The notes below the pieces were generated by a model. It worked only from the letters and a program-made list of their open reading frames with translations. It made no database searches and had not been told where the DNA came from. From the IMG/VR virus record IMGVR_UViG_3300045988_122441: a DNA stretch of 64,000 nt. One strand, written 5' to 3'. Both the position numbers and the translations under genes were made by a program. The DNA comes from a virus. Positions 100 to 59,981 of this stretch are shown piece by piece (the stretch's first letter is position 1; each line of letters starts with the position of its first letter).

Positions 100-744
100 A
101 TGGCTAAGAAGAAAAACAACTTTTATGCGGTGAAGAAAGGAAAGAATCCGGGGATATATAAAACCTGGTATGAATGTAGAGCGCAGGTTGAAGGCTTTAG
201 TGGCGCTCTATACAAAGGTTTCACAACCAGAAAAGAAGCTGAGAAGTATCTGAGTTGTAACAATACATCGGAAAAACAGGAGTTAAAAGAAGCTGATGTT
301 ACTATCTATGTTGATGGTAGCTTTGATGAACGATCCGGTGTTTATGGGTACGGGTGTGTTGTTATCAAAAATGATGGGGCTGTGGAAAAATATTACGGAG
401 CTGGTAATAATCCAGAATCAGTCAAGCTGAGAAATGTGGCAGGTGAGATGCTTGCCGCAATGAATGCAGTCAGATACGCAATGCAGAACGGATATAAATC
501 TGTGAATATTTGCTACGACTACAGTGGCATTGAGATGTGGGCTACTGGGGAATGGAAAACAAACAATGCATTAACAATGAAATACGCTCGTGCGATGCAG
601 GAGTGGGGAGAGAAAATCTCAATCATGTTTCAGAAAGTCGCAGCTCATACAGGTGTCGAATACAATGAAGCCGTAGATCAACTTGCAAAATTTGCGGTAA
701 GTAATTTTTGTAAGGAAAACGGTATAGGGAATGAAATGCGTTGA
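100..744 (+). CDS. Ribonuclease H (RNase HI type) with N-terminal hybrid-binding (Cauli_VI-like) domain
   Basis: The N-terminus FYAVKKGKNPGIYKTWYECRAQVEGFSGALYKGFTTRKEAEKYL is typical of the RNase H1 HBD. It is followed by IYVDGSF...GEMLAAMNAV...KVAAHTG..YNEAVDQLAK, an RNase H fold D-E-D-H/D pattern. RBS aacggagg is upstream. Confidence 0.85.
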   Translation: MAKKKNNFYAVKKGKNPGIYKTWYECRAQVEGFSGALYKGFTTRKEAEKYLSCNNTSEKQELKEADVTIYVDGSFDERSGVYGYGCVVIKNDGAVEKYYGAGNNPESVKLRNVAGEMLAAMNAVRYAMQNGYKSVNICYDYSGIEMWATGEWKTNNALTMKYARAMQEWGEKISIMFQKVAAHTGVEYNEAVDQLAKFAVSNFCKENGIGNEMR

Positions 745-779
745 GGCGCTAAGTGCGGGTTCGATTCCCGCCATTCCCT
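727..779 (+). other. Truncated tRNA-like element (7-bp acceptor stem plus T-arm only, 53 nt)
   Basis: gggaatg (727-733) is the perfect complement of cattccc (772-778). A canonical T-arm gcggg-ttcgatt-cccgc lies at 755-771. Only 21 nt separate the acceptor 5' strand from the T-arm, so no D-arm or normal anticodon arm fits. It overlaps the last codons of the RNase H gene. Confidence 0.35.
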
Positions 780-881: not shown

Positions 882-955
882 GGATCGTTAGCTCAGTTGG
901 TTAGAGCAATCGGCTCATAACCGATCGGTCATCCGTTCGAGTCGGATACGATCCA
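882..955 (+). tRNA. tRNA-Met (anticodon CAT); elongator type, or tRNA-Ile2 if lysidine-modified
   Basis: Hand-folded cloverleaf: acceptor ggatcgt/acgatcc, D arm gctc-agttggtta-gagc, anticodon arm atcgg-ctCATaa-ccgat, variable cggtc, T arm atccg-ttcgagt-cggat, discriminator A. The G1:C72 pair and the absence of a 3xGC anticodon stem argue against an initiator. Confidence 0.9.
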
Positions 956-984: not shown

Positions 985-2592
985 ATGTTCAGACCAACCA
1001 TTAATTCAACGCCACTGACATCACAGACGGCGAACACTTTTTTCAGAAACATTGGTGGAGAAAGTTTCCACAATGATGTAACATTCATCTCTACATTGAG
1101 AGCATTAGTTGCATCAAGAGTTAGTGAGGGAGAAAGTGTATTTGTTGCATTTAGAAATACCAGCTATTCAAAAAACACTATCGAAGATAATCCGAGTCAT
1201 GCTGTATTAAACGCTATGTATGATCCGCGTGATTACGGAGAGGGAAGCATTATTATCCATAGCTTTGAAGGTAATGCATCAGATAATCTCGCATCGTTCA
1301 AAATTATCGAGAGAGAGTTTGCATCACATAATAGTGGATTTGAACGAATCGTGAAAGTGACCGAATTTTTCAGGAAAACTTTTTATTCTTTGTGCTATGT
1401 AAATCCGGCGGAGCGCAAGGTCGTTATCTTCGTAGACCATCTGAATATTCGCAGAATGCATTATTTACAGTGTGCGATATTCGCCTTTTTACCATGGTAT
1501 TTTGATCCGAATGCAGGAGTTACAGAAGATGAGATGGATTTGATTCAGTCTTTAAGAGAAACTACTCCGGAAAGATATATGGCAGCAATCTCAAAAATTG
1601 CATCTGCATACGATTTCAGAGGTATGCATATCAGAAATTCTCTGAAGGGATTTGAAACGATTTATGAAAAGCATCAGTGTGATTCTCTCAGAAGCAGTAT
1701 CCAGAGTTATATCAGAAAGATTAGAGATTATAACGACCAGATTGCTAATGTATTGAGAAATAAAAATGATGCGGAAATCAGGCTGATGGGGCTGGAAGAG
1801 AAAATCGCAAGACTTGAGGGAGAAGATTCTGAAATCATGGAATACTTCCTTTGCAACACAAAACTCGATTTGGAATATGTCAATGGTTCAGAACTGACAT
1901 TTGTTGTAAAAGATTACCTGATGTATTTCGATGAGGATATGGCAAAAACAATCATTGACAATAATAACAGCTATGTGTACAGACATTCAAGAAGCTTTGA
2001 CCGTGAAGATGTAAAAAAGCTGATGTATGCAATTTTCATCGATCAGGTGTTAAAACTTAGATTTTGCTGCGCTTATACTATCCGCCTTGGTGAAAGAGTA
2101 ACCGGTATGCGCGACTATAGCTATAACGAAAGCTGTGATACATACATCCCGAACCCACATATCGACCGCTTTAGTTGTCTCGGAAACTACGAGAGAACAA
2201 TGAATGAACGGTTGATGGACAACGATGCGATTGGTGCTATCGAGCAGTGTATCAGCTCATGTAAGAGTTTGAACTTCAGTGACAGCACAGTTATGGAAGT
2301 ATTTATGGATCGTATGTGTAGTAGAGATGGATACAGACATAATAAATGCATAGAGCTTCCAGACGGCAATATCGTGGATATGAAGGGTGCAATCGAATGG
2401 ATGAAAGAGCAGGAAAGAGCTGCTCAGGAAGCGGAAGCTCCAGAAGAAGAACAGGAAGAAACTTCAGTTGCTGAAGCACAGGAGCCGACAGAGGAAATTC
2501 CAGTTCCGGATGAAGAAACTGTAGACCACATCGATGAAGATGAAGAAATCGAAGATGACCTCGAATTACTCGAAGAGGATGAATTATTCTAA
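985..2592 (+). CDS. Hypothetical protein (535 aa) with central coiled-coil and strongly acidic C-terminal tail
   Basis: Long ORF with RBS aaaggagg 8 nt upstream. The C-terminus is E/D-rich (EEEQEETSVAEAQEPTEE...DEDEEIEDDLELLEEDELF). No motif was recognised with confidence. Confidence 0.7.
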   Translation: MFRPTINSTPLTSQTANTFFRNIGGESFHNDVTFISTLRALVASRVSEGESVFVAFRNTSYSKNTIEDNPSHAVLNAMYDPRDYGEGSIIIHSFEGNASDNLASFKIIEREFASHNSGFERIVKVTEFFRKTFYSLCYVNPAERKVVIFVDHLNIRRMHYLQCAIFAFLPWYFDPNAGVTEDEMDLIQSLRETTPERYMAAISKIASAYDFRGMHIRNSLKGFETIYEKHQCDSLRSSIQSYIRKIRDYNDQIANVLRNKNDAEIRLMGLEEKIARLEGEDSEIMEYFLCNTKLDLEYVNGSELTFVVKDYLMYFDEDMAKTIIDNNNSYVYRHSRSFDREDVKKLMYAIFIDQVLKLRFCCAYTIRLGERVTGMRDYSYNESCDTYIPNPHIDRFSCLGNYERTMNERLMDNDAIGAIEQCISSCKSLNFSDSTVMEVFMDRMCSRDGYRHNKCIELPDGNIVDMKGAIEWMKEQERAAQEAEAPEEEQEETSVAEAQEPTEEIPVPDEETVDHIDEDEEIEDDLELLEEDELF

Positions 2593-2605
2593 GGAGAGAA
2601 TGAAT

Positions 2606-3550
2606 ATGAGTAAACTGATTAAATTGCCGCAGGATATTCTCGATCAGTATACAAAGGAGTTTTATGAAACTCTGAGATCGGGAAAATTTTCAGATGGGAA
2701 GGTAAACTTTACAAAGACACTTGGGACTGTTGATCGAAAAGCAACAGTCCTTTTTACTAAGATGGCATGGGAGAAAATGCAGCTGCTTGTTAAAGAATTT
2801 GATAAGGAAGTTGCATGGCATGGAATTGCAGAGAGATGCGAAGAGAAAGATACATATCTGATTTCAGACATCCTTGTTTATCCACAGGAAGTAACGGGTT
2901 CTACAGTTACAACAGATCAGTCCAAATACGAAAACTGGCTTATGTCACACGATGACGAAGTGTTTAATAACATTAGAATGCAGGGGCATTCACATGTAAA
3001 TATGGCGGTAAGCCCATCAAGTGTGGATTTGAGTCTGTACGAACGAATTCTGGATCAGCTCAGTAGCGATATGTTCTATATCTTCATGATTTGGAACAAG
3101 CGTGGTGAAAAGACTGTAAAAATCTATGATCTCAGAGAGAATATCCTGTTTGAAACAGCAGATGTCACAGTGACTATCAAAGGTATGGAAGATATGACGG
3201 AATTCCTTGAAGAGGCAAAGGAATTGGTCGTGACAAAAACATACAATTATGGCGGATACGGAACCGGTGCCCATCCATATCATTATCCGGGCTATGGAGC
3301 TGCAAAAAGAGATGAGTCGAAAGGCGGTGCAAGCCTGGGAAAACATCAGCCCCTTGTGTCAACAGGTAAGAAAAGCAAAGGGCGCAAGGGGAAACGTAAG
3401 AAAGACAAATCAACTGGAAAACAGATGAGCATGGCTGATTATGGATATCCCGGTTGTGGCGATGATGACTATGATGACACAGATATTCATGGCGGAGTCA
3501 ATGGATATAACGACGAATACTGGAGACGCCAGTATGGGTTCGACTATTAA
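2606..3550 (+). CDS. JAB/MPN (JAMM) metalloprotease-domain protein with Gly/Lys-rich C-terminal extension
   Basis: Complete JAMM signature: upstream Glu (EVAWHGIAER) plus GHSHVNMAVSPSSVD, which matches H-x-H-x7-S-x2-D. The start was chosen at the ATG with RBS aaggag 9 nt upstream; the track ORF begins earlier, inside the upstream gene. Confidence 0.8.
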   Translation: MSKLIKLPQDILDQYTKEFYETLRSGKFSDGKVNFTKTLGTVDRKATVLFTKMAWEKMQLLVKEFDKEVAWHGIAERCEEKDTYLISDILVYPQEVTGSTVTTDQSKYENWLMSHDDEVFNNIRMQGHSHVNMAVSPSSVDLSLYERILDQLSSDMFYIFMIWNKRGEKTVKIYDLRENILFETADVTVTIKGMEDMTEFLEEAKELVVTKTYNYGGYGTGAHPYHYPGYGAAKRDESKGGASLGKHQPLVSTGKKSKGRKGKRKKDKSTGKQMSMADYGYPGCGDDDYDDTDIHGGVNGYNDEYWRRQYGFDY

Positions 3551-3563: not shown

Positions 3564-4052
3564 ATGACCAGAGAAGAATTTCAAGAGAATGTAAATAGCT
3601 GGTACGACCTTAGAGAGTTTTGTAATGAATATGGCTGCGAGGTATGCAGTGATATTTATTCACAGGACGAAATGGACGAGGAAATCGATAATAGTATCGT
3701 AGATATGGCAAGAGAAGCGACGGATTGGAGAGATTTATTATCGAAATTAGAGGACATTCCTACTGAAGATGAGTATTACATAAAGAATGGATATGGTGAT
3801 TTCACGGAAGTAGATGAAGAAGATTTCGATTATCACAAAGATGATGTCTTTGATTGGGCTGAGAATGAAGGTGTCTTCGACGAGGAAGATGAAGAGGATG
3901 AAGAGCCAGAGGAAGAATCAGAAGAAGATATCGAAGAACCGGAGGAACCAGAAGACCCTGATGATGGATATGAGGTAGGAAATGAGGAAATGTCTATCGC
4001 AGAACTTTTCGTTGTACCGAACAATGGAAAAAGAGGAATATATAACGTTTAA
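3564..4052 (+). CDS. Hypothetical highly acidic protein
   Basis: ORF with RBS aaggtggtg. It contains long runs of D/E (EEDEEDEEPEEESEEDIEEPEEPEDPDD). Confidence 0.6.
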   Translation: MTREEFQENVNSWYDLREFCNEYGCEVCSDIYSQDEMDEEIDNSIVDMAREATDWRDLLSKLEDIPTEDEYYIKNGYGDFTEVDEEDFDYHKDDVFDWAENEGVFDEEDEEDEEPEEESEEDIEEPEEPEDPDDGYEVGNEEMSIAELFVVPNNGKRGIYNV

Positions 4053-4067: not shown

Positions 4068-4739
4068 ATGGATTTAAGTAAATCATATGAATTTTTTCAG
4101 CCAGAGAAGGATAAAGCAAGAATCCACATCGTAGGATGTGGTTCCGTTGGATCAACAGTTGCAGAAAACCTTGCAAGATGCGGTGTAACAAAGATAACTC
4201 TGTATGACTTTGATAAAGTTGAACCGCATAATATCGTAAACCAGATGTTCGATCAGAACGACGTAGGAAGACTGAAGGTGGATGCACTGAAGGATATCCT
4301 TACAGACATCAATCCAGAAATCGCAGATCAGATCGAGGTGAAACCAGAAGGATGGCAGGGAAAATTAATGTCTGGATACATCTTCCTGTGTGTGGATAGC
4401 ATCGAACTGAGAAGAGAGATCGTTGAAAAGCATATGGACAGCCCGTATGTAAAAGCGGTATTTGATTTCAGAACCCTTCTTGAAAGCGCACAGCATTATG
4501 CAGCTGACTGGTCTGATTCCAAAATGAAGAAAGACCTGCTGAACTCGATGCAGTTCTCACACGATGAAGCTAAGGATGAAACCCCTGTATCTGCTTGTGG
4601 TGTAACTCTTGGCGTAGCAACAACAGTGCGATTGATTTCAGCTCTTGGAGTGAACAATTACATTAACTTCGTAAAAGGAGAAGGAATCAAGAAGATGATT
4701 ATCATGGACGGGTTCAAATTTGACCTTCTGGCATTCTAG
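4068..4739 (+). CDS. ThiF/MoeB/E1-like adenylation-domain protein (short, no catalytic-Cys domain)
   Basis: IHIVGCGSVGSTVAENLARCGVTKITLYDFDKVEPHNIVNQMF matches the Rossmann GxGxxG plus D-x-D...N..RQ pattern of E1/ThiF adenylation domains. The protein is only 223 aa. Confidence 0.8.
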   Translation: MDLSKSYEFFQPEKDKARIHIVGCGSVGSTVAENLARCGVTKITLYDFDKVEPHNIVNQMFDQNDVGRLKVDALKDILTDINPEIADQIEVKPEGWQGKLMSGYIFLCVDSIELRREIVEKHMDSPYVKAVFDFRTLLESAQHYAADWSDSKMKKDLLNSMQFSHDEAKDETPVSACGVTLGVATTVRLISALGVNNYINFVKGEGIKKMIIMDGFKFDLLAF

Positions 4740-4951: not shown

Positions 4952-4978
4952 AACCGCCACCTTGCGTGGCGGTTTTTA
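4952..4978 (+). terminator. Rho-independent terminator
   Basis: Stem accgccac/gtggcggt with loop cttgc, followed by TTTTT. Confidence 0.8.
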
Positions 4979-4980
4979 TA

Positions 4981-5268
4981 AAGAACATGCAATGATATTT
5001 ACCTCTTTGAGGTAGCTTCTTACTGTCAGTGGAAGTAACAACTTGATAAGGAAAAGAACAGAGGCGACAGAGAAAGCGGAGCACGCCGGAAGAACGTCGA
5101 ACTTCAGAATCAACTGATTCTGTCGAACGATCCAAATAACAAATTACCAAGTTAAAAACAACTAATGAACTGGTTATCAACGGATTACACTACCTGAGAA
5201 AATAAATACATGTCAGGAGGAGATCATCCGGGATACAGCCCATACATACATTAGATTGCGAAGTTCTT
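4981..5268 (+). ncRNA. Structured element A of a 4-member paralogous family (candidate RT-associated ncRNA)
   Basis: Closing helix aagaac-at-gcaat (4981-4993) pairs with attgc-gaa-gttctt (5255-5268). Invariant G at 4994. Hairpin 1 is tacctc-ttt-gaggta (5000-5014). Hairpin 2 is cttc-tt-act-gtc-agt-g-gaag. The 3' motif catacattag is conserved. It ends 13 nt before the RT start codon. Confidence 0.7.
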
Positions 5269-5281
5269 GAAAGGAGAAGAT

Positions 5282-6421
5282 ATGTACTACATTACAGTAA
5301 AACAGCCTCCATCATACCATCAGATGACATTAGAAGAGTTTCTTTTTGGAGGTAACGTACAACCAGAATTAATCAATGAAAATCTTACGAATACCAGAAC
5401 ATATGAGGTTGAAAATGTAAGCGAAAGATTTCTTCAGCTTGTTGATATAGATAAGCTTATTGCCAGACTTGTGTGGTTTAATGAGAGAACCGAATACTTA
5501 CGAGAGAAGCCAAGACGTGAATGGTATTATGAGTTCTACATTCCAAAAAAGAGTGGCGGTCTTAGAAAAATAGATGCACCAGAACCGGAATTAAAAGAAG
5601 CACTTAGCACGCTGAAGAATATTTTTGAGATAGATTTTAAAGCACTTTATCATACATCTGCGTTCGCATATATAAAGAAGAGAAGCACTCTTGATCTGCT
5701 GAAGCGTCATCAGGCAAACGAGAGTAAATGGTTTGAGAAATTGGACTTATCTAATTTCTTTGGAAGTACAACAATGGAATGGGTTCTCCATATGTTTTCA
5801 ATGGTTTTCCCATTCTCAGAAGTTATGAAAGACGAAAAAGGTAAGGCAGAACTTACAAAAGCACTTGAACTCGGATTCCTGGATGGCGGTCTTCCACAGG
5901 GGACTCCATTGTCACCAACTGTTACGAATATCATGATGATTCCGGTTGATTTCAAAGTTGCCAGAGAATTAAGGGAACATAATCATCAGAGATTTGTATA
6001 TACCAGATATGCTGATGATTTTCAGATTTCATCTAAATATAGTTTCAGTTTCATGGAAATCCAGAATGTAATAGTGTCTATCTTAAAGGATTTCGATGCA
6101 CCGTTTACAATCAAGAGTGAAAAGACACGATACGGATCATCGGCGGGACAGAACTGGAATCTCGGTCTTATGTTAAATAAGGACAACGAGATTACAGTAG
6201 GTCATAAGAAAAAGAGACAGTTCCAGGCAATGCTTTCTTCCTATATTATGGACAGGAAAAATGGAATTGCTTGGGATAAAAATGATATTCAGACAATGGA
6301 TGGGTATCGAAACTATTACCGAATGGTTGAGCCGGAAACGATTGATGGAATCGTTAGACATCTCAGCGAAAAATTCGGTGTTGATATCATAAAAGCAATT
6401 AAGGAAGACCTTACGGCTTAG
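5282..6421 (+). CDS. Reverse transcriptase, RT domain only (retron/retron-like type)
   Basis: RT motifs in order: YIPKKSGGLRKIDAP (1), SAFAYIKKRS, KLDLSNFFGST (A), GLPQGTPLSPTVTN (B), YTRYADDFQISS (C, YADD), IKSEKTRYG (D), NLGLMLNKDNEITVGHKKKRQF (E). No maturase, endonuclease or other fused domain. The start was taken at the ATG with RBS aaaggagaag. Confidence 0.85.
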   Translation: MYYITVKQPPSYHQMTLEEFLFGGNVQPELINENLTNTRTYEVENVSERFLQLVDIDKLIARLVWFNERTEYLREKPRREWYYEFYIPKKSGGLRKIDAPEPELKEALSTLKNIFEIDFKALYHTSAFAYIKKRSTLDLLKRHQANESKWFEKLDLSNFFGSTTMEWVLHMFSMVFPFSEVMKDEKGKAELTKALELGFLDGGLPQGTPLSPTVTNIMMIPVDFKVARELREHNHQRFVYTRYADDFQISSKYSFSFMEIQNVIVSILKDFDAPFTIKSEKTRYGSSAGQNWNLGLMLNKDNEITVGHKKKRQFQAMLSSYIMDRKNGIAWDKNDIQTMDGYRNYYRMVEPETIDGIVRHLSEKFGVDIIKAIKEDLTA

Positions 6422-6478
6422 GCTGTAGGTCTTCTGAGGTATTAAAAGGTATAAATAGGCATCATTTAGGAGAATATT

Positions 6479-6700
6479 ATGCTATATGGTAACGATGACA
6501 TTAAAGTAGATGGCGAGGACTATGCTATAGCATTACGCAATCTTGAACAAAAATATGGTTATGATGAGGATATCGAAACGATAATTAAAATGTGTAAGCA
6601 ATGGGAAAATAGTTTTCATAAATTAGAGAACAGATATCACAAATTAGTTATGGAAACAGCTATATTTGAAGCAAAAATCCGTAAAATCACAGCGGAATAA
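6479..6700 (+). CDS. Hypothetical small coiled-coil protein (73 aa)
   Basis: ORF with RBS aggaga 7 nt upstream, immediately downstream of the RT. Confidence 0.5.
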   Translation: MLYGNDDIKVDGEDYAIALRNLEQKYGYDEDIETIIKMCKQWENSFHKLENRYHKLVMETAIFEAKIRKITAE

Positions 6701-6739
6701 TCATCAATATTTATATCTAACTATAACAAGAAAATAAAA

Positions 6740-7001
6740 TCTATGCAATGAAATTACTGTTTTACAGTGCTTTTAGCTGTCAGCGAAAGTAACACCTTGA
6801 GAAGGAAAAGAACCACCTCCCAGCCAGCTGCCACGAGCTTCCTTCCAGGATCCAAACAAACAATATCAGAATCACTAGACATCAACATAATCCAACCACT
6901 GATTATCAATCACCTACAAATAGGAAATGTTCAAAGAACTAGATAACCAGTGAGATGCTCCTGAATTCTCAAGAAGACATACATACATTAGATTGCATAG
7001 A
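6740..7001 (+). ncRNA. Structured element B of the 4-member family
   Basis: 10-bp closing helix tctatgcaat (6740-6749) / attgcataga (6992-7001). G at 6750. Hairpin 1 is actgt-ttt-acagt. Hairpin 2 is cttt-ta-gct-gtc-agc-g-aaag. 3' motif catacattag. Confidence 0.7.
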
Positions 7002-7004
7002 AGC

Positions 7005-7292
7005 AAATGTACAATGAAATTATATCCTTTGGATATGCTTTTAGCCGTTGGCGGAAGTGACAACTTGATAGGGAAAGGAGAAGAGCACCCCGTGCTGCTG
7101 AGGCGCCTAAATCATGATCTTCAGATCCTGGTAAGGTTCCGAACAATATCAAACGAAGATAAAATCACGATAACGTCCTGATAATCAATAAGTTCATACG
7201 CAATCTTCACTCATTTCTGCAAATCAAAGATCTGCGTAGCTAAGCTGAAGACTCATCGAGGACATCACCATCGTACATCAGATTGTACATTT
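7005..7292 (+). ncRNA. Structured element C of the 4-member family (3 nt after element B)
   Basis: 11-bp closing helix aaatgtacaat (7005-7015) / attgtacattt (7282-7292). G at 7016. Hairpin 1 is atatcc-ttt-ggatat. Hairpin 2 inner stem is gcc-gtt-ggc. 3' motif gtacatcag. The 62-aa track ORF inside it has no RBS. Confidence 0.7.
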
Positions 7293-7322
7293 TGGATAAA
7301 TTATATTCAAGGAGGATAGAAT

Positions 7323-7781
7323 ATGTATTTTAACACAAACATCAATTTAATAAGGGTTCCTAGAGTATTCAGTGGCTCTCATCCAAACGAGGATAAGATG
7401 AATGCATGTAGAGCCTACTATAGAGAAAATCACAAAATCGATAGAGATATCGTGGTTGACGAAAATATGCAGCTCAAGGATGGATACATCGGATATCTGG
7501 TTTTGAAAGAAAACAACGAGTCTGTAATTGGAGTCAAACAGACGGAATCAGGTAAAACGACTCTTGTATATGGAGTTCATCCAGGCGTAGACAAAGAGTA
7601 TTGCTGGAAAGTAGTTGATGATACAGAGGATAGACTGAATCTTAATGTTGGATCACATGCTATTGTAAGAACAAAATTCGGAGATGAAGAAATTCTTATC
7701 ACAAGAATTGAGCGTGTTTCCAAGGCTAAGAAGAAAAAGATGGGACACTTAAAAAGAGTCGTAAGATGTCTGGCGGAGTAA
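7323..7781 (+). CDS. Hypothetical protein with ParB-N-like 'L-x-DGY' segment followed by a small beta-rich module
   Basis: RBS aaggagga. IVVDENMQLKDGYIGYLVLKENN resembles the ParB/sulfiredoxin-type DGxxR/Y segment. The C-terminal KEYCWKVVDD..VGSHAIVRTKFGDEEILITRI recurs at the N-terminus of ORF 18058-18513. Confidence 0.6.
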   Translation: MYFNTNINLIRVPRVFSGSHPNEDKMNACRAYYRENHKIDRDIVVDENMQLKDGYIGYLVLKENNESVIGVKQTESGKTTLVYGVHPGVDKEYCWKVVDDTEDRLNLNVGSHAIVRTKFGDEEILITRIERVSKAKKKKMGHLKRVVRCLAE

Positions 7782-7955
7782 CAGTATGAGATGTGTTTAC
7801 TTAGAAAAGAAAGAATTTCTTTCAAACGAAGACAGACGTATTCATACAGCTTGCATATGCAGAAATAAAAAGTGTGCGAAATATAAAACTTTTAGCCTGG
7901 ATAAAGCATACATATGCGGAAATTGCTTGCTTCATGCTAAGGAAAGAGAGGAACA

Positions 7956-8522
7956 ATGAATTTTTATATAGCCGATATGCATTTTGGTCATAAGAATGTG
8001 ATCAGATATGACAATAGACCATTTGATTCTATCGAAGAAATGGATAAGGCAATGATTACACTGTGGAATGAAACTGTCGGAGATAATGATGTTGTTTATA
8101 TTCTCGGCGACTTTAGCTGGTATAAAGAAGAAAAGACGGCATTTATTCTTGGATGCCTTAAAGGACACAAGGTTCTTATCAGAGGGAATCACGACCATAT
8201 TTCTCCAAAAGTCGCAAGACACTTTGAACGGATTTGTGAATATGCAGAAATCAAAGATGGAGAAGAAAAAGTTGTCATGTCTCACTATCCAATGCCTTTC
8301 TGGAATGGTCAGCACAGAAACAGTATTCATTTGTATGGTCATGTCCATAACTCACATCAGTATAATTACTGTCTGAGCATTGAGAAGGAGTTGCGTCAGT
8401 TACAGGATATCCCGATGAGAATGTTTAATGTTGGGTGTATGATGACGTATATGAATTACATGCCGAGAACATTAAATGAAATTTTGGAAAGCAAAGGAGG
8501 TACAGAGGATGGACAGAAGTAA
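7956..8522 (+). CDS. Calcineurin-like metallophosphoesterase
   Basis: Motifs IADMHFGH, GDFS, RGNHDH, SHYP, YGHVH. Confidence 0.8.
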   Translation: MNFYIADMHFGHKNVIRYDNRPFDSIEEMDKAMITLWNETVGDNDVVYILGDFSWYKEEKTAFILGCLKGHKVLIRGNHDHISPKVARHFERICEYAEIKDGEEKVVMSHYPMPFWNGQHRNSIHLYGHVHNSHQYNYCLSIEKELRQLQDIPMRMFNVGCMMTYMNYMPRTLNEILESKGGTEDGQK

Positions 8523-8811
8523 CTTTGATCCACAGGTCGGTGATTCTGTAAGGGTTCGATCGTGGGAAGATATGAAAAGTGAGTTCGGTATCGATGAGGA
8601 TGGAAATATCCCGTGCAGATTTTCCTTTACCGAATATATGAAAGATATGTGCGGGGATGAATTTACCATTACGAAGATTCACGATGGTAAATATAGCGGA
8701 CATGAAAAGGGGAGCGTTATGTTGTCGGTTGATATGCTCGAACCTATCCCAGAAGAAGAAATCGACGGGACGGAAATTGATGATTTCCTGAGTGCAATGA
8801 AGGTAAATTAG
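8509..8811 (+). CDS. Hypothetical protein (100 aa)
   Basis: ATG with RBS aaggagg 10 nt upstream; overlaps the upstream gene end by 14 nt. Confidence 0.55.
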   Translation: MDRSNFDPQVGDSVRVRSWEDMKSEFGIDEDGNIPCRFSFTEYMKDMCGDEFTITKIHDGKYSGHEKGSVMLSVDMLEPIPEEEIDGTEIDDFLSAMKVN

Positions 8812-8824
8812 TGGAGGTAGTGTT

Positions 8825-9232
8825 ATGAGGCTTATCATAGTGACTGGACAAGAGGGTGCGGACGTAGAGAACCTACTCCGCAGAACTATATCCGAAAATA
8901 AATACACGTATGATGATGCTCCTAAAATGGTCTTTCCTGAAAGGTCTAGCTTGCTTTATCATCCAAGAAGCCTTTACAACAACGTTAGAAAAGTTGTCAG
9001 CGATCATATTGACAGGAATGAAGATTTGTTCGTAGCAACATTTTCTGATTATGCTATGTATGGCGTAAGGGTTGAGATAAGACTTGCTGATTTTGAAGGC
9101 GCTAAGCTGTATCAGATGATGTCAGATGGCGAGGTTGTGGTATCCGAGATAGATAGTAATGGGAAATGCCAATATATCAAGGGAGTATTTGATGTTTTGG
9201 ACGAAGCTCTTAATGACGTACTTGGATGGTAG
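8825..9232 (+). CDS. Hypothetical protein (135 aa)
   Basis: ORF with RBS ggaggtag upstream. Confidence 0.55.
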   Translation: MRLIIVTGQEGADVENLLRRTISENKYTYDDAPKMVFPERSSLLYHPRSLYNNVRKVVSDHIDRNEDLFVATFSDYAMYGVRVEIRLADFEGAKLYQMMSDGEVVVSEIDSNGKCQYIKGVFDVLDEALNDVLGW

Positions 9233-9537
9233 AAAGATATTACTGCACATAGTGCATTAGTACACTCACAATGAAGATAGATTGTTTTTGGGCGAAAGTA
9301 TTTAATACGATAGCAATACATAATAGCAATCACTCCTGCTGTTAGCGAGAGTTCGACAATGGTACTTGCATCTCAAAATTACATAAGATTTGAAAAAGAC
9401 TATCAACTGCGTTGACACTAATTTTCAAATCATACGAATTTTTCGATGGCATGATATAGCATATGCTAAACCGAAGTTTCCAGAACGAGGAAACCGGTTT
9501 ACGCATACGGATTGTGAGTAAATAAAAAGGAGGCTAC

Positions 9538-10824
9538 ATGGGATATAAAGATATATATAAATTGCAGGAAATTGGGGGAGCAAAAGCCAAATGCGATTTC
9601 ATAAAAGAACACGCAGATGATGGATATTTTAAAAGATTTCTATATTTTGCGTTGAATCCGTTAATTACATACAATATATCGAAAAAATCACTGGATAAGC
9701 TTGTGACTGAAGAGGGTACAGAGGGTCAAAAGCTTATCTTTTTTAATGATATTTTCGAGTGCTGCGAACACCTTTCAAGATTGAGAAGTATGGATGATGC
9801 AACATTACGGCAGGTAAAAATGCTGTTAAATGTGAAATATTCCGATAAGGCAGAAAGAGAGTTATATATGCAACTGCTCTCAAAGACAGTACGTCTCGGT
9901 ATTACAGGTAAGACCATTAACAAGATCATTCCGAATCTTATTCCTGAATGGGAAGTACAGCAAGCTTATCCGGTTGATAAGTATCCTTTGAAAGAAGGAA
10001 CAGAATTCTGGTTGACACAGAAGCTCAACGGAGCAAGAGCAACCTTATATGAAGGTCAGCTGCTTGCAAGAAGTGGTATGCCATACAAAGGTCTGGAACA
10101 TATCACTTCTGCATTGTCCTGGTTAAGAGTGGCAGGATTCGTTGCTGACGGAGAATTGACACTCAAAGACAAAGGAAATCTGAGTGATAACGAAGCGTTT
10201 AGAGTTGCAACTGGAGTTCTCAACTCGGATAGTGTTAATAAAACGGTGATTTGCTACACGATTTTTGACATGATTCCAATCAGAGATTTCGATTCACCTG
10301 CTCCACAGACTACATATCGTTATCGTCGAGAGATTCTGAATCAGTTCGCCGAAAGGATTGATGATACGAATGGCGCGGTTAAGGTTCTGCCTGTTTTGTA
10401 TCATGGAAACGATCAATCCAAAATAGATGAGCTTTTGGAACAGATGGTTCGTGAGGACAAAGAGGGACTGATGATTAATACGGATGTTCCATATAGAAGA
10501 ACACGACATAAAGGTATTCTTAAAGTAAAGAGATTCTATACTATGGACTTACCAATTATCAGATGTGAAGGTGGAACTGGAAGACTGAAAGGGACTCTCG
10601 GAGCTTTTGTTCTGGAGTACAAAGGTAATGAGGTCAAAGTTGGTTCTGGATTCACTGACGAACAAAGAGAAAAATTCTGGCGAGATAGAGATGATCTGAC
10701 AGGAACGCTTTGTGAAGTAAAATATAAAGAAATTTCACAGGATAAGGGAACTGGGCTTGAAAGCTTGCAGTTCCCCGTTTTTGTAGGATTGAGAACAGAT
10801 AAAACAGAAGTAAGTTACGGATAA
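9538..10824 (+). CDS. ATP-dependent DNA ligase
   Basis: Nucleotidyltransferase motif I KLNGAR (KxxG), motif IV EGLMIN, motif V LKVK. OB-domain pattern GAFVLEYKGNEVKVGSGFTDEQRE. Confidence 0.85.
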   Translation: MGYKDIYKLQEIGGAKAKCDFIKEHADDGYFKRFLYFALNPLITYNISKKSLDKLVTEEGTEGQKLIFFNDIFECCEHLSRLRSMDDATLRQVKMLLNVKYSDKAERELYMQLLSKTVRLGITGKTINKIIPNLIPEWEVQQAYPVDKYPLKEGTEFWLTQKLNGARATLYEGQLLARSGMPYKGLEHITSALSWLRVAGFVADGELTLKDKGNLSDNEAFRVATGVLNSDSVNKTVICYTIFDMIPIRDFDSPAPQTTYRYRREILNQFAERIDDTNGAVKVLPVLYHGNDQSKIDELLEQMVREDKEGLMINTDVPYRRTRHKGILKVKRFYTMDLPIIRCEGGTGRLKGTLGAFVLEYKGNEVKVGSGFTDEQREKFWRDRDDLTGTLCEVKYKEISQDKGTGLESLQFPVFVGLRTDKTEVSYG

Positions 10825-10839
10825 TCAGGAGGAGTAGAA

Positions 10840-11292
10840 ATGTTATTACACAGTCAAAAGTCATTGTATTACGCAGATGGAGAAGAGATTACTAATCTGA
10901 CCGATATGGTTTTGGTTGCAATCAATGAGGTTACAAAGATTGATCCAGATAACAGAGATGATGGTAGTTATAACTACGGTGTGGATTTTTCAAATATACC
11001 GCCATTTAACCCATATATGATAGCAGCAACTCTTGAAGAACTCGGTTATAACGCCGAGTGTTTGGAGTCAAATGGATGGGAGCATGATTATTGGCAGTCA
11101 TTTTATCATCCAGACAATAAGAAATTCCCTCCTATGCAGACTTCTGGAACAAGCTTAATTCATCAATGTCGTTTGCATGGAAATGAAGAAAAGTGCGGAG
11201 AGTATCCTCGCTTAGAAGATAATCCGGAATACGCAGATCGTATTAAGCACGGGCTGGAGCTGCTTAAAAAAGCAATGGATCGTGCTGAATAG
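10840..11292 (+). CDS. Hypothetical protein (150 aa)
   Basis: ORF with RBS aggaggag upstream. Confidence 0.55.
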   Translation: MLLHSQKSLYYADGEEITNLTDMVLVAINEVTKIDPDNRDDGSYNYGVDFSNIPPFNPYMIAATLEELGYNAECLESNGWEHDYWQSFYHPDNKKFPPMQTSGTSLIHQCRLHGNEEKCGEYPRLEDNPEYADRIKHGLELLKKAMDRAE

Positions 11293-11317
11293 GATAAATA
11301 AATCATTAAAGGAGGCG

Positions 11318-11500
11318 ATGTCTATGATTGGACTCGTAATTTGCACATTATTAATTTGTGCAACGGTAATTATATGCATCTTGGGGTGGAAATACCTGGA
11401 TGAAAGAGATGATCTGTCGTATCAGAGATGGAATGCACTTGATACAAAGATTTCAAATATCGAAGAGTTATTAGAAAAGAAAGACGGAGGCAGAGGATAA
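11318..11500 (+). CDS. Small membrane protein (1 TM)
   Basis: ATG after RBS aaggaggc. Hydrophobic segment IGLVICTLLICATVIICILGW. Confidence 0.5.
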   Translation: MSMIGLVICTLLICATVIICILGWKYLDERDDLSYQRWNALDTKISNIEELLEKKDGGRG

Positions 11501-11679
11501 TGAATCCAGTATTTTGGTTCCTGGTATTTCTTGCGGCTGTTGTGTTATGGCTTGCGATTTCCTTCATCTTTATTCCTTTGGGAGGTTTACTCCTGAAACT
11601 GGTGAAGAGAATTTTAAATATTATCAACTATGAGGAAAACGATTCAGAGTCAGAAGAGGAAGAAAATGAAGAAAACTAA
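11500..11679 (+). CDS. Small membrane protein (59 aa, below the ORF-track cutoff) with acidic tail
   Basis: Hand-translated as MNPVFWFLVFLAAVVLWLAISFIFIPLGGLLLKLVKRILNIINYEENDSESEEEENEEN. RBS ggaggcagagg. ATGA overlap with the upstream stop. Confidence 0.4.
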   Translation: MNPVFWFLVFLAAVVLWLAISFIFIPLGGLLLKLVKRILNIINYEENDSESEEEENEEN

Positions 11680-12550
11680 GAAGAAAAATGGTTTAATCGG
11701 AGCTATTGCAACAGCGGTAGTTGTCATTGTTGCATTGGTATGTGTTGTGAGATGTGTAGAAAAGATCCCGGTAGGATACGAGGCTGTTGTGTATAACATC
11801 AACGGCGGTGTCTCTGGAGAAACATTAGATACAGGATGGCATATTGTATCTCCGATGAAGAAGATAAAGAATTTCACAATCAGTAATGAGCAGATTATCC
11901 TGAGCAAAGACAGCAGAGAAGGAAGCGAAGGGGACGACTCCTTTAAAGTTTCCACGTCTGATGATGCAATGCTGGCGATTAGTTTCCAGATGTCCTACAG
12001 ATTTAATCCGGAAACGCTTGTTGATACATATAAGAAGTTCAAAGGAATGGATGGAGAGTCGATCGTAACCAGTAGAGTAAAGACTGTTCTCAAGTCTAAA
12101 GTGTCTGAGGTAACGACGGACTACTCAATGATGGATATCTACTCCGGAAATCGTAGTGAAATCAACAATAAGATTACAGAGTATCTGAACAATGCTTTCG
12201 AGAAAGAGTACGGTATTCAGGTGCTTGATGCAAGCATTATTGATGTTCATCCAGACGATAAGCTGAAAGAATCTATCGACAATAGAGTAACAGCACTGCA
12301 GCAGAAGCAGCAGGCTCAGGTAGAACAGGAAACTGCAAAAGTTCAGGCAGAAACAGCTCTTATTAAGGCAAAGAATGAAGCAGATATCAAGGTTACAAAA
12401 GCAGAGGCAGAAGCTAAGGCAAATAAGCTGAAATCTGAGAGCTTAACACCAGAACTTATCCAGATGACAGAAGCAGAAGCAAGACTTAAACATGGCTGGG
12501 TTACTGTTCAGGGAGCAGATGCGACAGTTGTTGACGCGAGTGAAAAATAA
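11666..12550 (+). CDS. SPFH/Band-7 (stomatin/prohibitin/HflKC-like) membrane protein
   Basis: N-terminal TM (LIGAIATAVVVIVALVCVV) followed by IPVGYEAVVYN...GWHIVSP, typical of the SPFH domain. Long Q/A/E/K coiled-coil tail. Start taken at the internal ATG. Confidence 0.75.
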   Translation: MKKTKKKNGLIGAIATAVVVIVALVCVVRCVEKIPVGYEAVVYNINGGVSGETLDTGWHIVSPMKKIKNFTISNEQIILSKDSREGSEGDDSFKVSTSDDAMLAISFQMSYRFNPETLVDTYKKFKGMDGESIVTSRVKTVLKSKVSEVTTDYSMMDIYSGNRSEINNKITEYLNNAFEKEYGIQVLDASIIDVHPDDKLKESIDNRVTALQQKQQAQVEQETAKVQAETALIKAKNEADIKVTKAEAEAKANKLKSESLTPELIQMTEAEARLKHGWVTVQGADATVVDASEK

Positions 12551-12637
12551 TTAAATAAGAAACTCGGCTGCTATATATAGATATTTTCCTCAAGAAATCG
12601 CAAGTATTAGTAGCCGAGTAATAAAAGAGGTGGATTT

Positions 12638-12937
12638 ATGAATAATGCAATGAAATTTATATGTCGGCTTACCTCGAATGGAGCAAATCAAGGTGTTATT
12701 GATTCATTTTCTGGATCTAATAGCTATTGGTTTGCTTCTATTTTATTCAAAAGATTTATTAGAAATAACGCAACCATCATGTATGATCCGAAGAACCAAT
12801 GCTTTGGAACTCGTATAGGCACGAGGGTATACGACGTGACCGGAGATGTTACAGAAAATCATAAATGGATTTCATGGTTGGAATACTCTAATAAAGCATC
12901 CAAAGAGAAAATCACAAAAGAAAATATTATGTTTTAA
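12638..12937 (+). CDS. Hypothetical protein (99 aa)
   Basis: ORF with RBS agaggtgg upstream. Confidence 0.5.
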   Translation: MNNAMKFICRLTSNGANQGVIDSFSGSNSYWFASILFKRFIRNNATIMYDPKNQCFGTRIGTRVYDVTGDVTENHKWISWLEYSNKASKEKITKENIMF

Positions 12938-13191
12938 ACCGTAATGATATTACTGCTTTGCAGTGCTTCTTACTGTTAGTGGAAGTGACACCTTGAGAAG
13001 GAAAGGAGGAGACGCCTCCAGCACGGCAGGCGCTGCCGCATCCGGATCAGACCCAGAAGACTCCGACGAGAAATCGATAAATTAACCATAACACACTGAG
13101 AATCAATAATCCCCATACCAAGTCGAGTCTCCAGATGCGCGGGATACCGGCGATGAATTCCAGGTTACCGTACATTAGATTACAGTTTAAA
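12933..13191 (+). ncRNA. Structured element D of the 4-member family
   Basis: Closing helix tttaaac-c-gtaat (12933-12945) / attac-a-gtttaaa (13179-13191). G at 12946. Hairpin 1 is actgc-ttt-gcagt. Hairpin 2 is cttc-tt-act-gtt-agt-g-gaag. 3' motif gtacattag. Confidence 0.7.
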
Positions 13192-13210: not shown

Positions 13211-13429
13211 ATGGCTGAGAAGTATCTTATTGTAATGACAACTGTGCTTGTTGCGACACAGGTAATAAGAATCACACAGAATTTCGTACAGCTTTCAAGA
13301 CAGAACAAAGCAATCAAAAGAGAGCTTGATAGAGTTGGAGAAATTACTGATGACGATATCGCAACACAGAAGCGATTCTTTAGAATTGCCTGCGAATATT
13401 TGGATGAAAAGAGGGAACAGGATGAGTAA
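13211..13429 (+). CDS. Hypothetical small protein (72 aa), N-terminal hydrophobic helix
   Basis: RBS aaaggagc 7 nt upstream; directly downstream of element D. Confidence 0.5.
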   Translation: MAEKYLIVMTTVLVATQVIRITQNFVQLSRQNKAIKRELDRVGEITDDDIATQKRFFRIACEYLDEKREQDE

Positions 13430-14010: not shown

Positions 14011-16224
14011 ATGAGAGTTTTACTGTTATTAAGAGGAAGCGCCGGATGCGGAAAATCAACATGGATTGAGCAGAACGGGTTAAAGCAGTATGCATTATCT
14101 GCTGATGATATCCGAATGATGTATTCAAGCCCTCAGATGATGCCGGATGGAACACACGCAATCAATCAGTCAAATGACGGAGTAGTATGGAAAACACTGT
14201 TTAATATTCTGGAAACTAGAATGAGAAATGGAGAGTTTACAGTAATTGATGCCACAAACTCCAAAACAGCTGAGATGAATAGATACAAGAAGATGTGTGA
14301 CGAATACAGATACAGAATGTTTTGCGTTGATTTTACTACGATTCCGATTGAAGTTACAAAGGAAAGAAATCGTGGACGGCAGGAGTTGAAAAGAGTACCG
14401 GAGGAAGTAATCGATAAGATGTATGCAAGATTTGAGACACAGAAGATTCCGTCTGGTATCAAGGTCATTCAGCCGGATGAGTTAAACGCTGTGTTTATGA
14501 AGAAATTTGATCTGAATCAGTATAAGCGCATCCATCATATTGGAGATATTCATGGATGTAGAACTGCACTGGATACATATTTCAAGATGAATGGCGGATT
14601 CAAAGATGATGAGTTTTATATCTTCTGTGGCGATTACACAGATCGTGGAATTGAAAATGCAGATGTCCTGAAATTCCTCCTTTCAACCTACGATAAGCCG
14701 AATGTTTTACTGCTTGAGGGGAATCATGAACGGTGGTTATGGGACTGGGCGCATGACAAAGTAAGCAATTCAAAGGAATTTGAGTTCCATACAAAAGCTG
14801 AGATTGAAGATGCCGGAATTGACAAGAAATCAATCAGAAAGCTTTACAGAAGAATGGGACAGTGTGCTTACTATGAGTTTCGTGGCAAGACAGTCCTTGC
14901 TACTCATGCAGGATTGAGCTTCATCCCAGAGAATTTAACTACAGTCGCTACGAGTCAGATGATTAAGGGCGTTGGAAGATATAATGATGCCGAGCAGGTC
15001 GCATCTACCTTTGCTGAAAAGATGGGCGATGGATTCTATCAGGTTCATGGTCATAGAAATACCAAAGGTCTTCCGGTAAAAGTCAACGCTCATGTCTTCA
15101 ATCTTGAAGGCAGAGTTGAGTTTGGTGGAAATCTGAGAGCCGTTATCCTCGATAACGATGGGGCTTTCGTCCCTGTTGAGGTACAGAATACCGTCTTAAG
15201 AGAGCCTGAGAAATTAGAGTCCAGTGCTGACTCTGTCGGTGAGTGGATTTTTGAATTACGTCGTAATAAATACATCAAAGAAAAACAGTACGGCAATATT
15301 TCATCTTTCAACTTCACCAAAACAGCGTTTTATGACAAAATCTGGGACGAACAGACAACAAAAGCAAGAGGATTGTACATCGACATTCCAAAGCAGAAAG
15401 TTGTAGCCAGAGCATACGATAAGTTCTTCAATGTGAATGAGCGTCCAGAAACAAAACTTGAGATGTTGCATGACAAGCTGTCATTCCCAGTGAGAGCGTA
15501 TGTTAAGGAAAACGGATATCTCGGAATCGTTGCGAATAATCCAGAAACAGGAGAGCTGTTTGTGACAACGAAATCCAATCCGGAAGGAGCATTCGCAGAA
15601 TGGTTTATGGAGGCACTTCAGAAACAGCTCGGCGAAGAAACGCTTGACAAAGTAAATGAGTATTCAAAAGAGCATAACGTATCCTTTGTGTTTGAAAATG
15701 TAGACATGGAGCGTGACCCGCACATCATCAAATACCCAGAAAGTAAAGTATTTCTGCTTGATATTGTAGTAAACGATATGAAGTTCCAGAAGCTGAGCTA
15801 TGAGGATATGTGTGACGTGGCTGACTCAATGAATATTCCACATAAAGAGCTTGGCTATGAGATCGATACATGGCAGGAGTTCTTTGACTGGTACAACGAA
15901 GTGATGGTAGAAGATTACAGATACAACGGAAGACTCATTGAAGGATTTGTGGTTGAAGATTCAGATGGATACATGGTTAAGCTGAAACTGGCATACTACC
16001 ATTTCTGGAAGTTCATGAGATCTATCGCTCATGAGGCAATCAGAAAAGGCTATATCGACCCGAAGAGAACATCAGCACTGGTTACTCCTATTGCAAATCA
16101 GTTCTACTCATGGGTAAAAACACTGCATGATGTGGAAGATGTTGACAGTGTCCCGAGGGATATTTGTACTCTGAGAGATATGTTCTATGAATCCGACTCC
16201 GGTAAGAAATTCAAATATGAATAG
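14011..16224 (+). CDS. Pnkp-type RNA repair enzyme: polynucleotide 5'-kinase / 2',3'-phosphatase / ligase-like adenylyltransferase
   Basis: N-terminal P-loop GSAGCGKST. Central lambda-phosphatase-type motifs GDIHGC, GDYTDRG, GNHE, THAG, GHRN. C-terminal nucleotidyltransferase motif I VKENGYLG (KxxG). The three-domain order matches bacterial Pnkp. Confidence 0.8.
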   Translation: MRVLLLLRGSAGCGKSTWIEQNGLKQYALSADDIRMMYSSPQMMPDGTHAINQSNDGVVWKTLFNILETRMRNGEFTVIDATNSKTAEMNRYKKMCDEYRYRMFCVDFTTIPIEVTKERNRGRQELKRVPEEVIDKMYARFETQKIPSGIKVIQPDELNAVFMKKFDLNQYKRIHHIGDIHGCRTALDTYFKMNGGFKDDEFYIFCGDYTDRGIENADVLKFLLSTYDKPNVLLLEGNHERWLWDWAHDKVSNSKEFEFHTKAEIEDAGIDKKSIRKLYRRMGQCAYYEFRGKTVLATHAGLSFIPENLTTVATSQMIKGVGRYNDAEQVASTFAEKMGDGFYQVHGHRNTKGLPVKVNAHVFNLEGRVEFGGNLRAVILDNDGAFVPVEVQNTVLREPEKLESSADSVGEWIFELRRNKYIKEKQYGNISSFNFTKTAFYDKIWDEQTTKARGLYIDIPKQKVVARAYDKFFNVNERPETKLEMLHDKLSFPVRAYVKENGYLGIVANNPETGELFVTTKSNPEGAFAEWFMEALQKQLGEETLDKVNEYSKEHNVSFVFENVDMERDPHIIKYPESKVFLLDIVVNDMKFQKLSYEDMCDVADSMNIPHKELGYEIDTWQEFFDWYNEVMVEDYRYNGRLIEGFVVEDSDGYMVKLKLAYYHFWKFMRSIAHEAIRKGYIDPKRTSALVTPIANQFYSWVKTLHDVEDVDSVPRDICTLRDMFYESDSGKKFKYE

Positions 16225-16236: not shown

Positions 16237-16365
16237 ATGGTGGTCAAAATGATTATCATTGGTGCGGTTTGCTTTCTCGTCGGGCTTATGCTCGGCGTGA
16301 TGCTTACTGCCGTAGTCAGTATTGACAGAGTAAACCGAGAACAAAGAGGTAATACATATGACTGA
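16237..16365 (+). CDS. Possible small membrane protein (42 aa, below track cutoff)
   Basis: Hand-translated as MVVKMIIIGAVCFLVGLMLGVMLTAVVSIDRVNREQRGNTYD. RBS aggaga upstream. Confidence 0.3.
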   Translation: MVVKMIIIGAVCFLVGLMLGVMLTAVVSIDRVNREQRGNTYD

Positions 16366-16690
16366 GGTTATGACAAGCGAAGGACGAGTATCAAGAGCAG
16401 ATGCTGCGAGAATACACTTCGCAAAGCACTATGCAATAATGAGAAAATACCATACACAGCTAACCAGAATCAAGAACAGAACTATTAGTAAGAATAACAA
16501 AACTGGAAGAACTGGTGTGTGGTTAGACCAGGAGCATAATAGATATCGAGCATATATCACATTACATAGAAAGAAAATACATCTTGGTTGTTTTGAAAAA
16601 TATGAAGATGCAGTTGCGGCAAGAGAGAAAGCGGAACATGAATATTTTGATCCGTTAATTGCAGCTATTGATGAAGAATTTGGAACATAA
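16358..16690 (+). CDS. AP2-domain DNA-binding protein
   Basis: NKTGRTGVWLDQEHNRYRAYITLHRKKIHLGCFEKYEDAVAAREKAE matches the AP2/ERF-type pattern (G..GV......W.A.I......LG.F....eAa.A) seen in phage AP2 proteins. Confidence 0.65.
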   Translation: MTEVMTSEGRVSRADAARIHFAKHYAIMRKYHTQLTRIKNRTISKNNKTGRTGVWLDQEHNRYRAYITLHRKKIHLGCFEKYEDAVAAREKAEHEYFDPLIAAIDEEFGT

Positions 16691-18530: not shown

Positions 18531-18746
18531 ATGATTAATTCTTTCCTCCAGCTGATTGTTTTTGTGTTTGCGGTTTGGTGTCTTGTGATAGTTATTAAGG
18601 CTATTGTAGATAACCCGGACGCAAGATGTCAGTATGGAAATTGTGATGAATGTCCATTCCCTAGATGTAGAAAGGAGATGGTCAATAATGGGCGTATACA
18701 TAACAGGAGACTGCCACGGCGAATGGACAAAACTAAGGCAGTTTAG
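18531..18746 (+). CDS. Small membrane protein with Cys-rich tail
   Basis: TM segment LQLIVFVFAVWCLVIVIKAIV followed by CQYGNCDECPFPRC. The 3' end overlaps the next gene, so the end point is uncertain. Confidence 0.4.
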   Translation: MINSFLQLIVFVFAVWCLVIVIKAIVDNPDARCQYGNCDECPFPRCRKEMVNNGRIHNRRLPRRMDKTKAV

Positions 18747-28149: not shown

Positions 28150-28178
28150 TTTTAATCTAAGAAAGGGCGGCAGTTATT

Positions 28179-28998: not shown

Positions 28999-28999
28999 T

Positions 29000-43213: not shown

Positions 43214-43259
43214 CTCGGACGTAAAAACGTCCAAAAAATAATCTGAAAGGAGAACGTCA

Positions 43260-59944: not shown

Positions 59945-59981
59945 GTTGATGCTGTAGTCAATATAGAAAGGAATATTGATT

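Follow-up and report, generated by a model that had tools for sequence, protein, structure and literature searches.

The 64,000-nucleotide stretch of viral DNA analysed here (IMG/VR record IMGVR_UViG_3300045988_122441, referred to as the window) is the part of a large phage genome that serves replication and nucleotide metabolism. Two integrase-like genes lie in it, together with genes for DnaB, DNA polymerase, NrdD, NAMPT, RNase H1, DNA ligase, a Pnkp-like RNA repair enzyme and an endolysin. The window also carries four related elements on its + strand, A to D, and the open reading frame (ORF) of a retron-type reverse transcriptase (RT) begins 14 nt after the first of them. The elements are considered here as candidate retron non-coding RNAs (ncRNAs). 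Their parts and their neighbours are collected in Table 1.

Table 1. Features of the window in order of position (aa, amino acids; CM, covariance model).
Feature	Coordinates	Strand	Remarks
RNase H1 with N-terminal hybrid-binding domain	100-744	+	Pfam Cauli_VI 1.5e-20, RNase_H 1e-12
tRNA-Met (CAT)	882-955	+	
535-aa protein	985-2592	+	Confident AlphaFold model, pLDDT (predicted local distance difference test) 84.6
338-aa protein	2534-3550	+	Upstream block
162-aa protein	3564-4052	+	In 30 of 37 viral loci
Short ThiF/E1-like protein	4068-4739	+	66-99% identical across loci
Intrinsic-terminator-like hairpin	4952-4974		Stops a few bases before A
Putative retron ncRNA A (msr-msd)	4981-5268	+	CM R1 100.8 bits; directly upstream of RT gene
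A: a1, pairing with a2	4981-4993 with 5255-5268	+	
A: branching G	4994	+	Predicted 2'-OH primer; abuts a1
A: msr core	5000-5054	+	Hairpin 1 5000-5014, hairpin 2 5015-5036, conserved block 5035-5054
A: putative reverse-transcription template (msd)	5055-5254	+	Ends ..ACATTAG; opposing G 5254
A: central palindrome ACTGGTTATCAAC	5169-5181	+	Position-constrained motif; relative position ~0.5 of template
Retron-type RT	5282-6421	+	379 aa, YADD; Pfam RVT_1 3.6e-19
Putative retron ncRNA B	6740-7001	+	CM 84.2 bits; 10 bp a1/a2
B: a1; branching G; msr core	6740-6749; 6750; 6756-6808	+	
B: template; palindrome; a2	6809-6991; 6898-6910; 6992-7001	+	Opposing G 6991
Putative retron ncRNA C	7005-7292	+	CM 95.6 bits; 11 bp a1/a2; tandem, 3 nt after B
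C: a1; branching G; msr core	7005-7015; 7016; 7022-7076	+	
C: template; palindrome; a2	7077-7281; 7177-7189; 7282-7292	+	Opposing G 7281
DUF5839 protein	7323-7781		After C
Calcineurin-like metallophosphoesterase genes	7956-8522; 18634-19449	+	
ATP-dependent DNA ligase	9538-10824	+	Between copies C and D
Putative retron ncRNA D, distal copy	12933-13191	+	CM 89 bits; 13 nt a1/a2, one mismatch; 6.5 kb downstream of RT
D: a1; branching G; msr core	12933-12945; 12946; 12952-13004	+	a1 overlaps stop codon of ORF 12638-12937
D: template; palindrome; a2	13005-13178; 13095-13107; 13179-13191	+	Opposing G 13178
72-aa ORF	13211-13429		After D
Pnkp-like kinase-phosphatase-RNA ligase fusion (tRNA-repair type)	14011-16224	+	After D
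HNH endonuclease	16358-16690	+	After D
Transfer-messenger RNA	27821-28152	+	Rfam 93.4 bits; ARAGORN tag peptide ANRQMLAVA*
Nucleotidyltransferase	28928-30028	+	
Nicotinamide phosphoribosyltransferase	32752-34215	+	
Integrase-like genes	42100-43056; 59976-61178	+	Second matches phrog_1 at 5e-65
tRNA-Gln (TTG)	43142-43214	+	

The first-pass annotation, made from the sequence alone, had placed four elements at these positions of the + strand, and the placement was confirmed in the sequence. Each element is closed by a helix of its two ends, a1 and a2 (A, aagaac..gcaat/attgc..gttctt; B, tctatgcaat/attgcataga; C, aaatgtacaat/attgtacattt; D, tttaaac.gtaat/attac.gtttaaa). The helices are copy-specific and yet complementary in all four cases, as had been described. 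An invariant G follows a1. Hairpin 1 with its TTT loop and the two-tier hairpin 2 come next, and then a conserved block, GTRACAMCTTGAKARGGAAA, which has four exact matches in the window against 0.09 expected by chance. Hairpin 2 and this block are near-identical in all four copies, while hairpin 1 and a1/a2 are copy-specific. A TACATYAG motif stands just before the 3' strand of the closing helix in every copy, again as reported. The middle of about 170 nt had been called divergent. The divergence is real, and a conserved central palindrome that had not been listed lies within it. From the ends of A, C and D it is 13-30 nt to the start codon of the following gene, and the ribosome-binding site of that gene comes just after the element. 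B adjoins C downstream, not a gene.

The first-pass annotation had proposed a covariance model, a wider viral search and an Rfam scan as checks of its claims. The covariance model was built on the 5' 82 nt of the elements, and the window was scanned with filters off. The four copies scored 84-101 bits. The next match reached only 14.6 bits, and therefore no fifth copy is present. The Rfam scan over the elements gave no match, whether the gathering score or an E-value of up to 5 was applied, so the hit to a known leader that was to count against the annotation did not appear. The helices were then judged in a wider alignment, where the covariation holds; it comprises 75 covariance-model hits, 52 of them distinct, in the window and in 37 related viral loci. 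In the three msr helices 94.4% of cells were paired against 75.9% after shuffling, and none of 500 shuffles reached the observed value. Changes on both sides were found in 14 of the 18 msr pairs, and slid-register controls were 38-48% paired. The a1/a2 test was anchored on the invariant G, by which alignment freedom is removed. On average 7.65 of 8 positions paired (23 distinct combinations), compared with 5.98 (maximum 6.7) when a2 was permuted among the elements. Compensatory changes occurred at positions 1, 4, 5, 7 and 8. The helices are kept by compensatory change, and there is no consistent ORF. Selection thus acts on a folded RNA and not on a protein or a simple repeat, as the first-pass annotation had argued.

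A retron ncRNA has paired a1/a2 ends, a branching G that directly adjoins a1, an opposing G that does the same at a2, and one to three short msr hairpins (PMC7736814). All of these are found in the elements. The branching G lies immediately 3' of a1 in 102 of 102 elements. The opposing G lies immediately 5' of a2 in 101 of 102, and the remaining one is a coordinate offset and not a difference in sequence. The features of the elements thus map one-to-one onto msr-msd (PMC7736814): the closing helix is a1/a2, the invariant G is the branching G, hairpins 1 and 2 are the msr, the divergent middle is the reverse-transcription template, and TACATYAG is the template start, ending in the opposing G. 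Because of this mapping and of the RT gene in view, the four elements are probably (about 80%) retron ncRNAs served by one phage-encoded retron-type RT. The statement that the consensus belongs to no named RNA family holds as far as Rfam is concerned. The kind of RNA is nevertheless a known one, and this was missed because the RT ORF 14 nt after A had been overlooked. The aside that the selected molecule might be single-stranded DNA (ssDNA) was apt.

The RT was compared with several libraries. Its best PADLOC models are retron RTs (RT_II-A, 2.1e-47, full length), and its best NCBIfam model is retron_St85_RT (8.8e-50). Of its 13 sequence matches in the PDB, 12 are named retron proteins, with Ec83 the best (1.6e-19) and Ec78, the St85 family, Ec67, Kva2 and Ec86 among the others. 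YADD is present in all of 50 RT homologues. In the same set the most conserved residues of regions X and Y, H and G respectively, are invariant. Judged by these sequence comparisons, the enzyme is of the retron type but a member of no named RT family.

The arrangement is widespread among relatives. Forty-eight related loci were collected, 37 of them viral (IMG/VR) and 11 from metagenome-assembled genomes (MAGs), with RTs 59-97% identical; 45 were long enough to judge. At least one element was found in all 45, with a retron-clade RT adjacent on the same strand, and it lies directly upstream of the RT in all but three truncated loci. Most judged loci carry one to three further elements downstream of the RT. 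An iterated nhmmer search found 115 msr-like elements in the window and the viral loci, all on the RT strand. In the viral loci an element is directly upstream of the RT in all except the truncated L035, and nearly all of them have one to three more downstream. The same order of parts was seen in the longer MAG loci and in two further contigs. The viral relatives sit on contigs of up to 133 kb. Full-length relatives of 115-117 kb have four copies in total, and an orthologue of the distal copy D is present in six loci (L001-L006). In a large protein database more than 5,400 RT homologues were found in metagenomes, with 70-99% identity among the matches listed. Nearly all of the 120 matches listed are about 379-380 aa long, and many are on contigs of about 116-118 kb. 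No cultured close relative was found, the best phage record being 41% identical and unannotated. A 41%-identical RT on a human faecal phage contig has an msr-like match just upstream.

Some further observations were made on these loci. The MAG loci (L039-L049) were binned to unrelated taxa, namely Roseburia, Oscillospiraceae, Prevotella, Alistipes and Acutalibacteraceae. The inconsistency suggests that they are mis-binned phage contigs. One of them, L039 (JAUNSG010000001.1), is 358,930 bp long, about three times the phage genome. Partial msr-like fragments, consisting of hairpin 2 and part of the block without a1 or branching G, occur in L008 (12215-12250), L009 (13285-13320), L010 (13275-13310), L037 (13273-13308) and L029 (16011-16041). 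Decay of former copies may account for them, or they may be RT-binding sites that stand alone.

Template lengths are 170-205 nt in the window and reach about 290 nt in relatives. The template is poor in T and rich in C, with T fractions of 0.16-0.24 (0.18 in A) and C fractions of 0.21-0.29, compared with 0.265 and 0.16 for the whole window; its A fraction is 0.31-0.40. Its sequence changes about as fast as the four-fold degenerate sites in the gene for the RT, while the msr stays 83-100% identical. Between the window and L002-L005 the four-fold identity is 0.48-0.55 and the msd identity 0.56-0.63. For L001 and L006 the values are 0.69-0.73 and 0.77-0.92. Orthologous templates differ by indels and near-neutral substitution. 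Hypermutation of the template was considered, as the middle looked hypervariable, and was rejected since the divergence matches that of the four-fold degenerate sites. In one pair of loci, L004 and L005, the RTs are 99.5% identical, yet the msd identities of B, C and D are 0.87, 0.79 and 0.64. A sliding-window comparison traces this excess to mosaicism of the genomes: a replaced block adjoins D, and identity in the flanks of B and C is 0.85-0.94. The two loci are strongly mosaic as a whole, with blocks of less than 50% identity (12.9, 16.4-17.9 and 19.5-20.2 kb of the locus) amid regions of 94-100%.

What is conserved in the template is its length within each paralogue, its composition and a midpoint palindrome, and not its sequence. 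The palindrome is CCATTG-N5-CAAT, represented by CTGAnnATCAAT in the window. It stands, small and conserved, in place of a long msd stem. Covariation inside it is weak, so that a hairpin and a protein-binding site are indistinguishable. No consistent pairing partner of the central motif was found, the search for downstream partners included. A central stem of 13 bp exists in only some copies, such as element B of L015. No template has a match elsewhere in the window (blastn, word size 7). The minus strand gave no coding signal, and on the plus strand no ORF preceded by a ribosome-binding site recurs consistently.

Several results count against the identification as retron ncRNAs. The score of the RT against retron_St85_RT, 169.6 bits, is below the curated NCBIfam cutoff of 235 for this equivalog-level model. 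The retron motifs NAXXH of region X and VTG of region Y (PMC7736814) are only partly kept, as xxKRH and NLG in the 50 homologues. The long stable msd stem-loop (10-50 bp) expected of a retron was not found. The RNA fold of the template is weak (median z -0.9), and the cDNA fold z values of the four window copies are -2.3, -2.8, -0.9 and -0.2. Pairs spanning the template centre numbered 15.6 against 15.0 in shuffles. As there is no excess, most copies lack the canonical long msd stem-loop. A promoter consensus scan gave no convincing promoter and was itself uninformative. Lastly, no PADLOC or Pfam effector domain was recognised in the ORFs neighbouring the RT. An effector is not universal among retrons, and stand-alone cassettes are known (PMC7736814).

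The lack of a canonical msd hairpin also favours the foremost alternative. The elements might be structured 5' untranslated leaders, or RT-binding operators, of the genes for the RT, the DUF5839 protein and the 72-aa ORF, and would then not be reverse transcribed. The ends of A, C and D close to the next start codon and ribosome-binding site suit this alternative as well. However, B precedes C and not a gene. The branching G, the opposing G and a1/a2 form a retron priming geometry, which would be purposeless in a plain leader. The elements always have a retron-type RT next to them, each paralogue keeps its template length, and no cis-regulatory family of Rfam is matched. A leader or operator role is accordingly considered unlikely.

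A hybrid RNA as in Type VI retrons was also considered, in which the region enclosed by a1/a2 would encode a small toxic protein derepressed by cDNA synthesis. The RNA enclosed by a1/a2 is long here too, and Type VI hybrid RNAs do enclose an ORF (10.1101/2025.10.22.683967). A plus-strand frame is fully open in 42 of 99 templates compared with about 20 after shuffling, the sequences not being independent. Among 39 non-redundant elements, however, there is no consistent combination of ribosome-binding site, start codon and ORF. Where an ORF is present it begins inside the msr hairpins, some elements have none, and the orthologues differ by indels and near-neutral substitution. Such a hybrid RNA is very improbable.

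An A-rich template beside an RT is likewise seen in phage diversity-generating retroelements (DGRs), where a template repeat is copied with adenine mutagenesis into a target gene. But the RT is of the retron type and not of the DGR type, and the template lacks an ORF and drifts neutrally. No variable repeat was detected in the window by blastn at word size 7, which covers 64 kb of a genome of about 117 kb. An ungapped scan with A masked reached at most 0.66 of the non-A positions, with a null of 0.54-0.58. A DGR is thus hardly credible. Equally hard to credit are miniature inverted-repeat transposable elements, for which four units of 260-290 bp with terminal inverted repeats of 10-13 nt could be taken, since the repeats differ between copies while staying complementary within each, the copies keep one orientation and syntenic positions down to 59% RT identity, the internal helices covary, and no target-site duplications were seen on reading the flanks of the copies.

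The retron ncRNA reading can be set against known systems. With canonical bacterial retrons, of which Ec83/Ec78 (type I-A) and St85/Ec86 (type II-A) have the closest RTs, the elements share a1/a2, both Gs and the short msr hairpins. In both, moreover, an ncRNA stands immediately before the RT gene and on its strand, and the RT is of the retron clade and has YADD (PMC7736814). The module is atypical in other respects. Canonical retrons have one ncRNA per RT, whereas the phage module has two to four and no recognised effector. They possess a long stable msd stem-loop, while the phage template is long, T-poor and weakly structured. The phage RT is longer at its N-terminus by about 70 aa, and its NAXXH and VTG motifs are divergent. 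Canonical retrons reside in bacterial defence islands, but the element here belongs to a phage genome and is syntenic there.

Tandem msr-msd units on one RT, each giving its own RT-DNA, have been engineered as multitron arrays (PMC10370050), to which B and C, 3 nt apart, may be compared. The multitron arrays are synthetic and carry editing donors, whereas the phage array would be natural and its templates match nothing else in the window. A retron-type RT without an effector is also encoded by a Staphylococcus jumbo phage (MarsHill gp206; 10.1101/2020.12.14.422802). The non-coding DNA upstream of gp206 was proposed to hold an ncRNA, which was never defined, and no array was reported (10.1101/2020.12.14.422802). 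The relationship is a distant one, since the related Staphylococcus jumbo phages vB_StaM_SA1 and LY01 match with 30-32% identity over 62% of the query. The Type VI hybrid RNA of Retron-Vpa2 shares a long RNA closed by a1/a2-like repeats and a retron RNA that adjoins a ribosome-binding site, but it embeds a small ORF, which the phage elements lack. Phage DGRs share a phage RT with an adjacent A-rich template; they differ in RT clade, and here there are a retron priming geometry and no variable repeat in the 64 kb window. A literature search found prophage and jumbo-phage retron-type RTs and engineered tandem-ncRNA multitrons, but neither a natural retron with several ncRNAs nor the RT of this phage family was found described.

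Upstream of the module, the 535-aa, 338-aa and ThiF-like proteins are conserved in all 37 viral loci. The 535-aa protein gave no Pfam, PDB sequence or PDB fold match (best Foldseek E 0.08) and matches uncharacterised viral proteins only. The RNase H1 gene lies 4 kb upstream of the retron and was within the fetched flanks of only the six closest relatives. Retron RTs depend on RNase H1 (PMC8989520), and the phage enzyme is a possible accessory for msDNA maturation, the link being an inferred one. The gap between RT and B (6422-6739) is a variable slot. A 73-aa ORF (6479-6700) occupies it here and in one relative only, a different insert is present in L001, and there is no gap in L004, L005 and L011-L036. 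A metallophosphoesterase gene directly follows the last ncRNA in the L011/L015 lineages (L011-L021 and related loci, ~11475-12435). It comes 0.7 kb after C in the window lineage, and none lies within the flanks of the other lineages. A role as 2'-5' debranching enzyme was considered for it. Given the patchy distribution and the lack of an informative PDB match, this stays speculation. Farther away, the nucleotidyltransferase and the nicotinamide phosphoribosyltransferase may form an NAD+ salvage module. A borderline tRNA-like Rfam match at 727-779 (+) scored 29 bits, equal to the gathering score, and was not called by ARAGORN. The two integrase-like genes imply that the phage may be temperate, which bears on whether the retron protects lysogens. 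Its predicted hosts are Clostridia.

The locus is probably a natural retron array, A-RT-B-C with the distal D, in which one RT would copy four RNAs into ssDNAs. From the sequence and the covariation, a1/a2 close each RNA and thereby place the invariant branching G across from the conserved last G of the template (..ACATYAG before a2). The RT would recognise hairpin 2 and the GTRACAMCTTGAKARGGAAA block, which are common to all four copies. By established retron biochemistry, it is expected to prime from the 2'-OH of the branching G and to copy the template leftwards. Each element would then give a different branched RNA-ssDNA molecule (msDNA), with up to about 170-200 nt of DNA. The template RNA could be removed by RNase H1, which is supplied by the phage in this lineage.

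The purpose of such a module may lie with the phage itself, in counter-defence, as an ssDNA decoy or as an aid to replication or recombination. We give this role slightly less than even odds. We lean to it because of the family-wide synteny, the lack of an adjacent toxin-like effector, and a template constrained in length, composition and palindrome and not in sequence. A classical toxin-antitoxin retron of abortive infection with an unrecognised effector is a doubtful alternative. The phage-serving role can be extended to a whole, widespread family of gut phages of about 117 kb. These phages might possess, as a core syntenic module, a natural multiplexed retron of one RT and two to four ncRNAs that makes several long unstructured ssDNAs for the benefit of the phage, in contrast to a toxin-antitoxin guard that acts by abortive infection. 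This wider proposal is a tentative one.

Retrons are understood as bacterial anti-phage systems in which a single RT goes with a single ncRNA and a single effector. In the present case the retron chemistry appears to be built into a virus, with the module in every retrieved relative, several templates per enzyme and no visible toxin. If the elements are active, they would offer a natural precedent for engineered multitron arrays. They would also give Rfam and the tools that search for retrons a clearly delimited family of structured RNA, which is currently missed. The compact RT would then accept several long (~170-200 nt) templates of low structure, which is attractive for the production of ssDNA donors. 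Activity would also mean that phages themselves use retron reverse transcription and that msDNA has a role outside abortive infection. If a multiplexed retron does serve these phages, retron reverse transcription would have a new biological role, and the array would be the first natural one.

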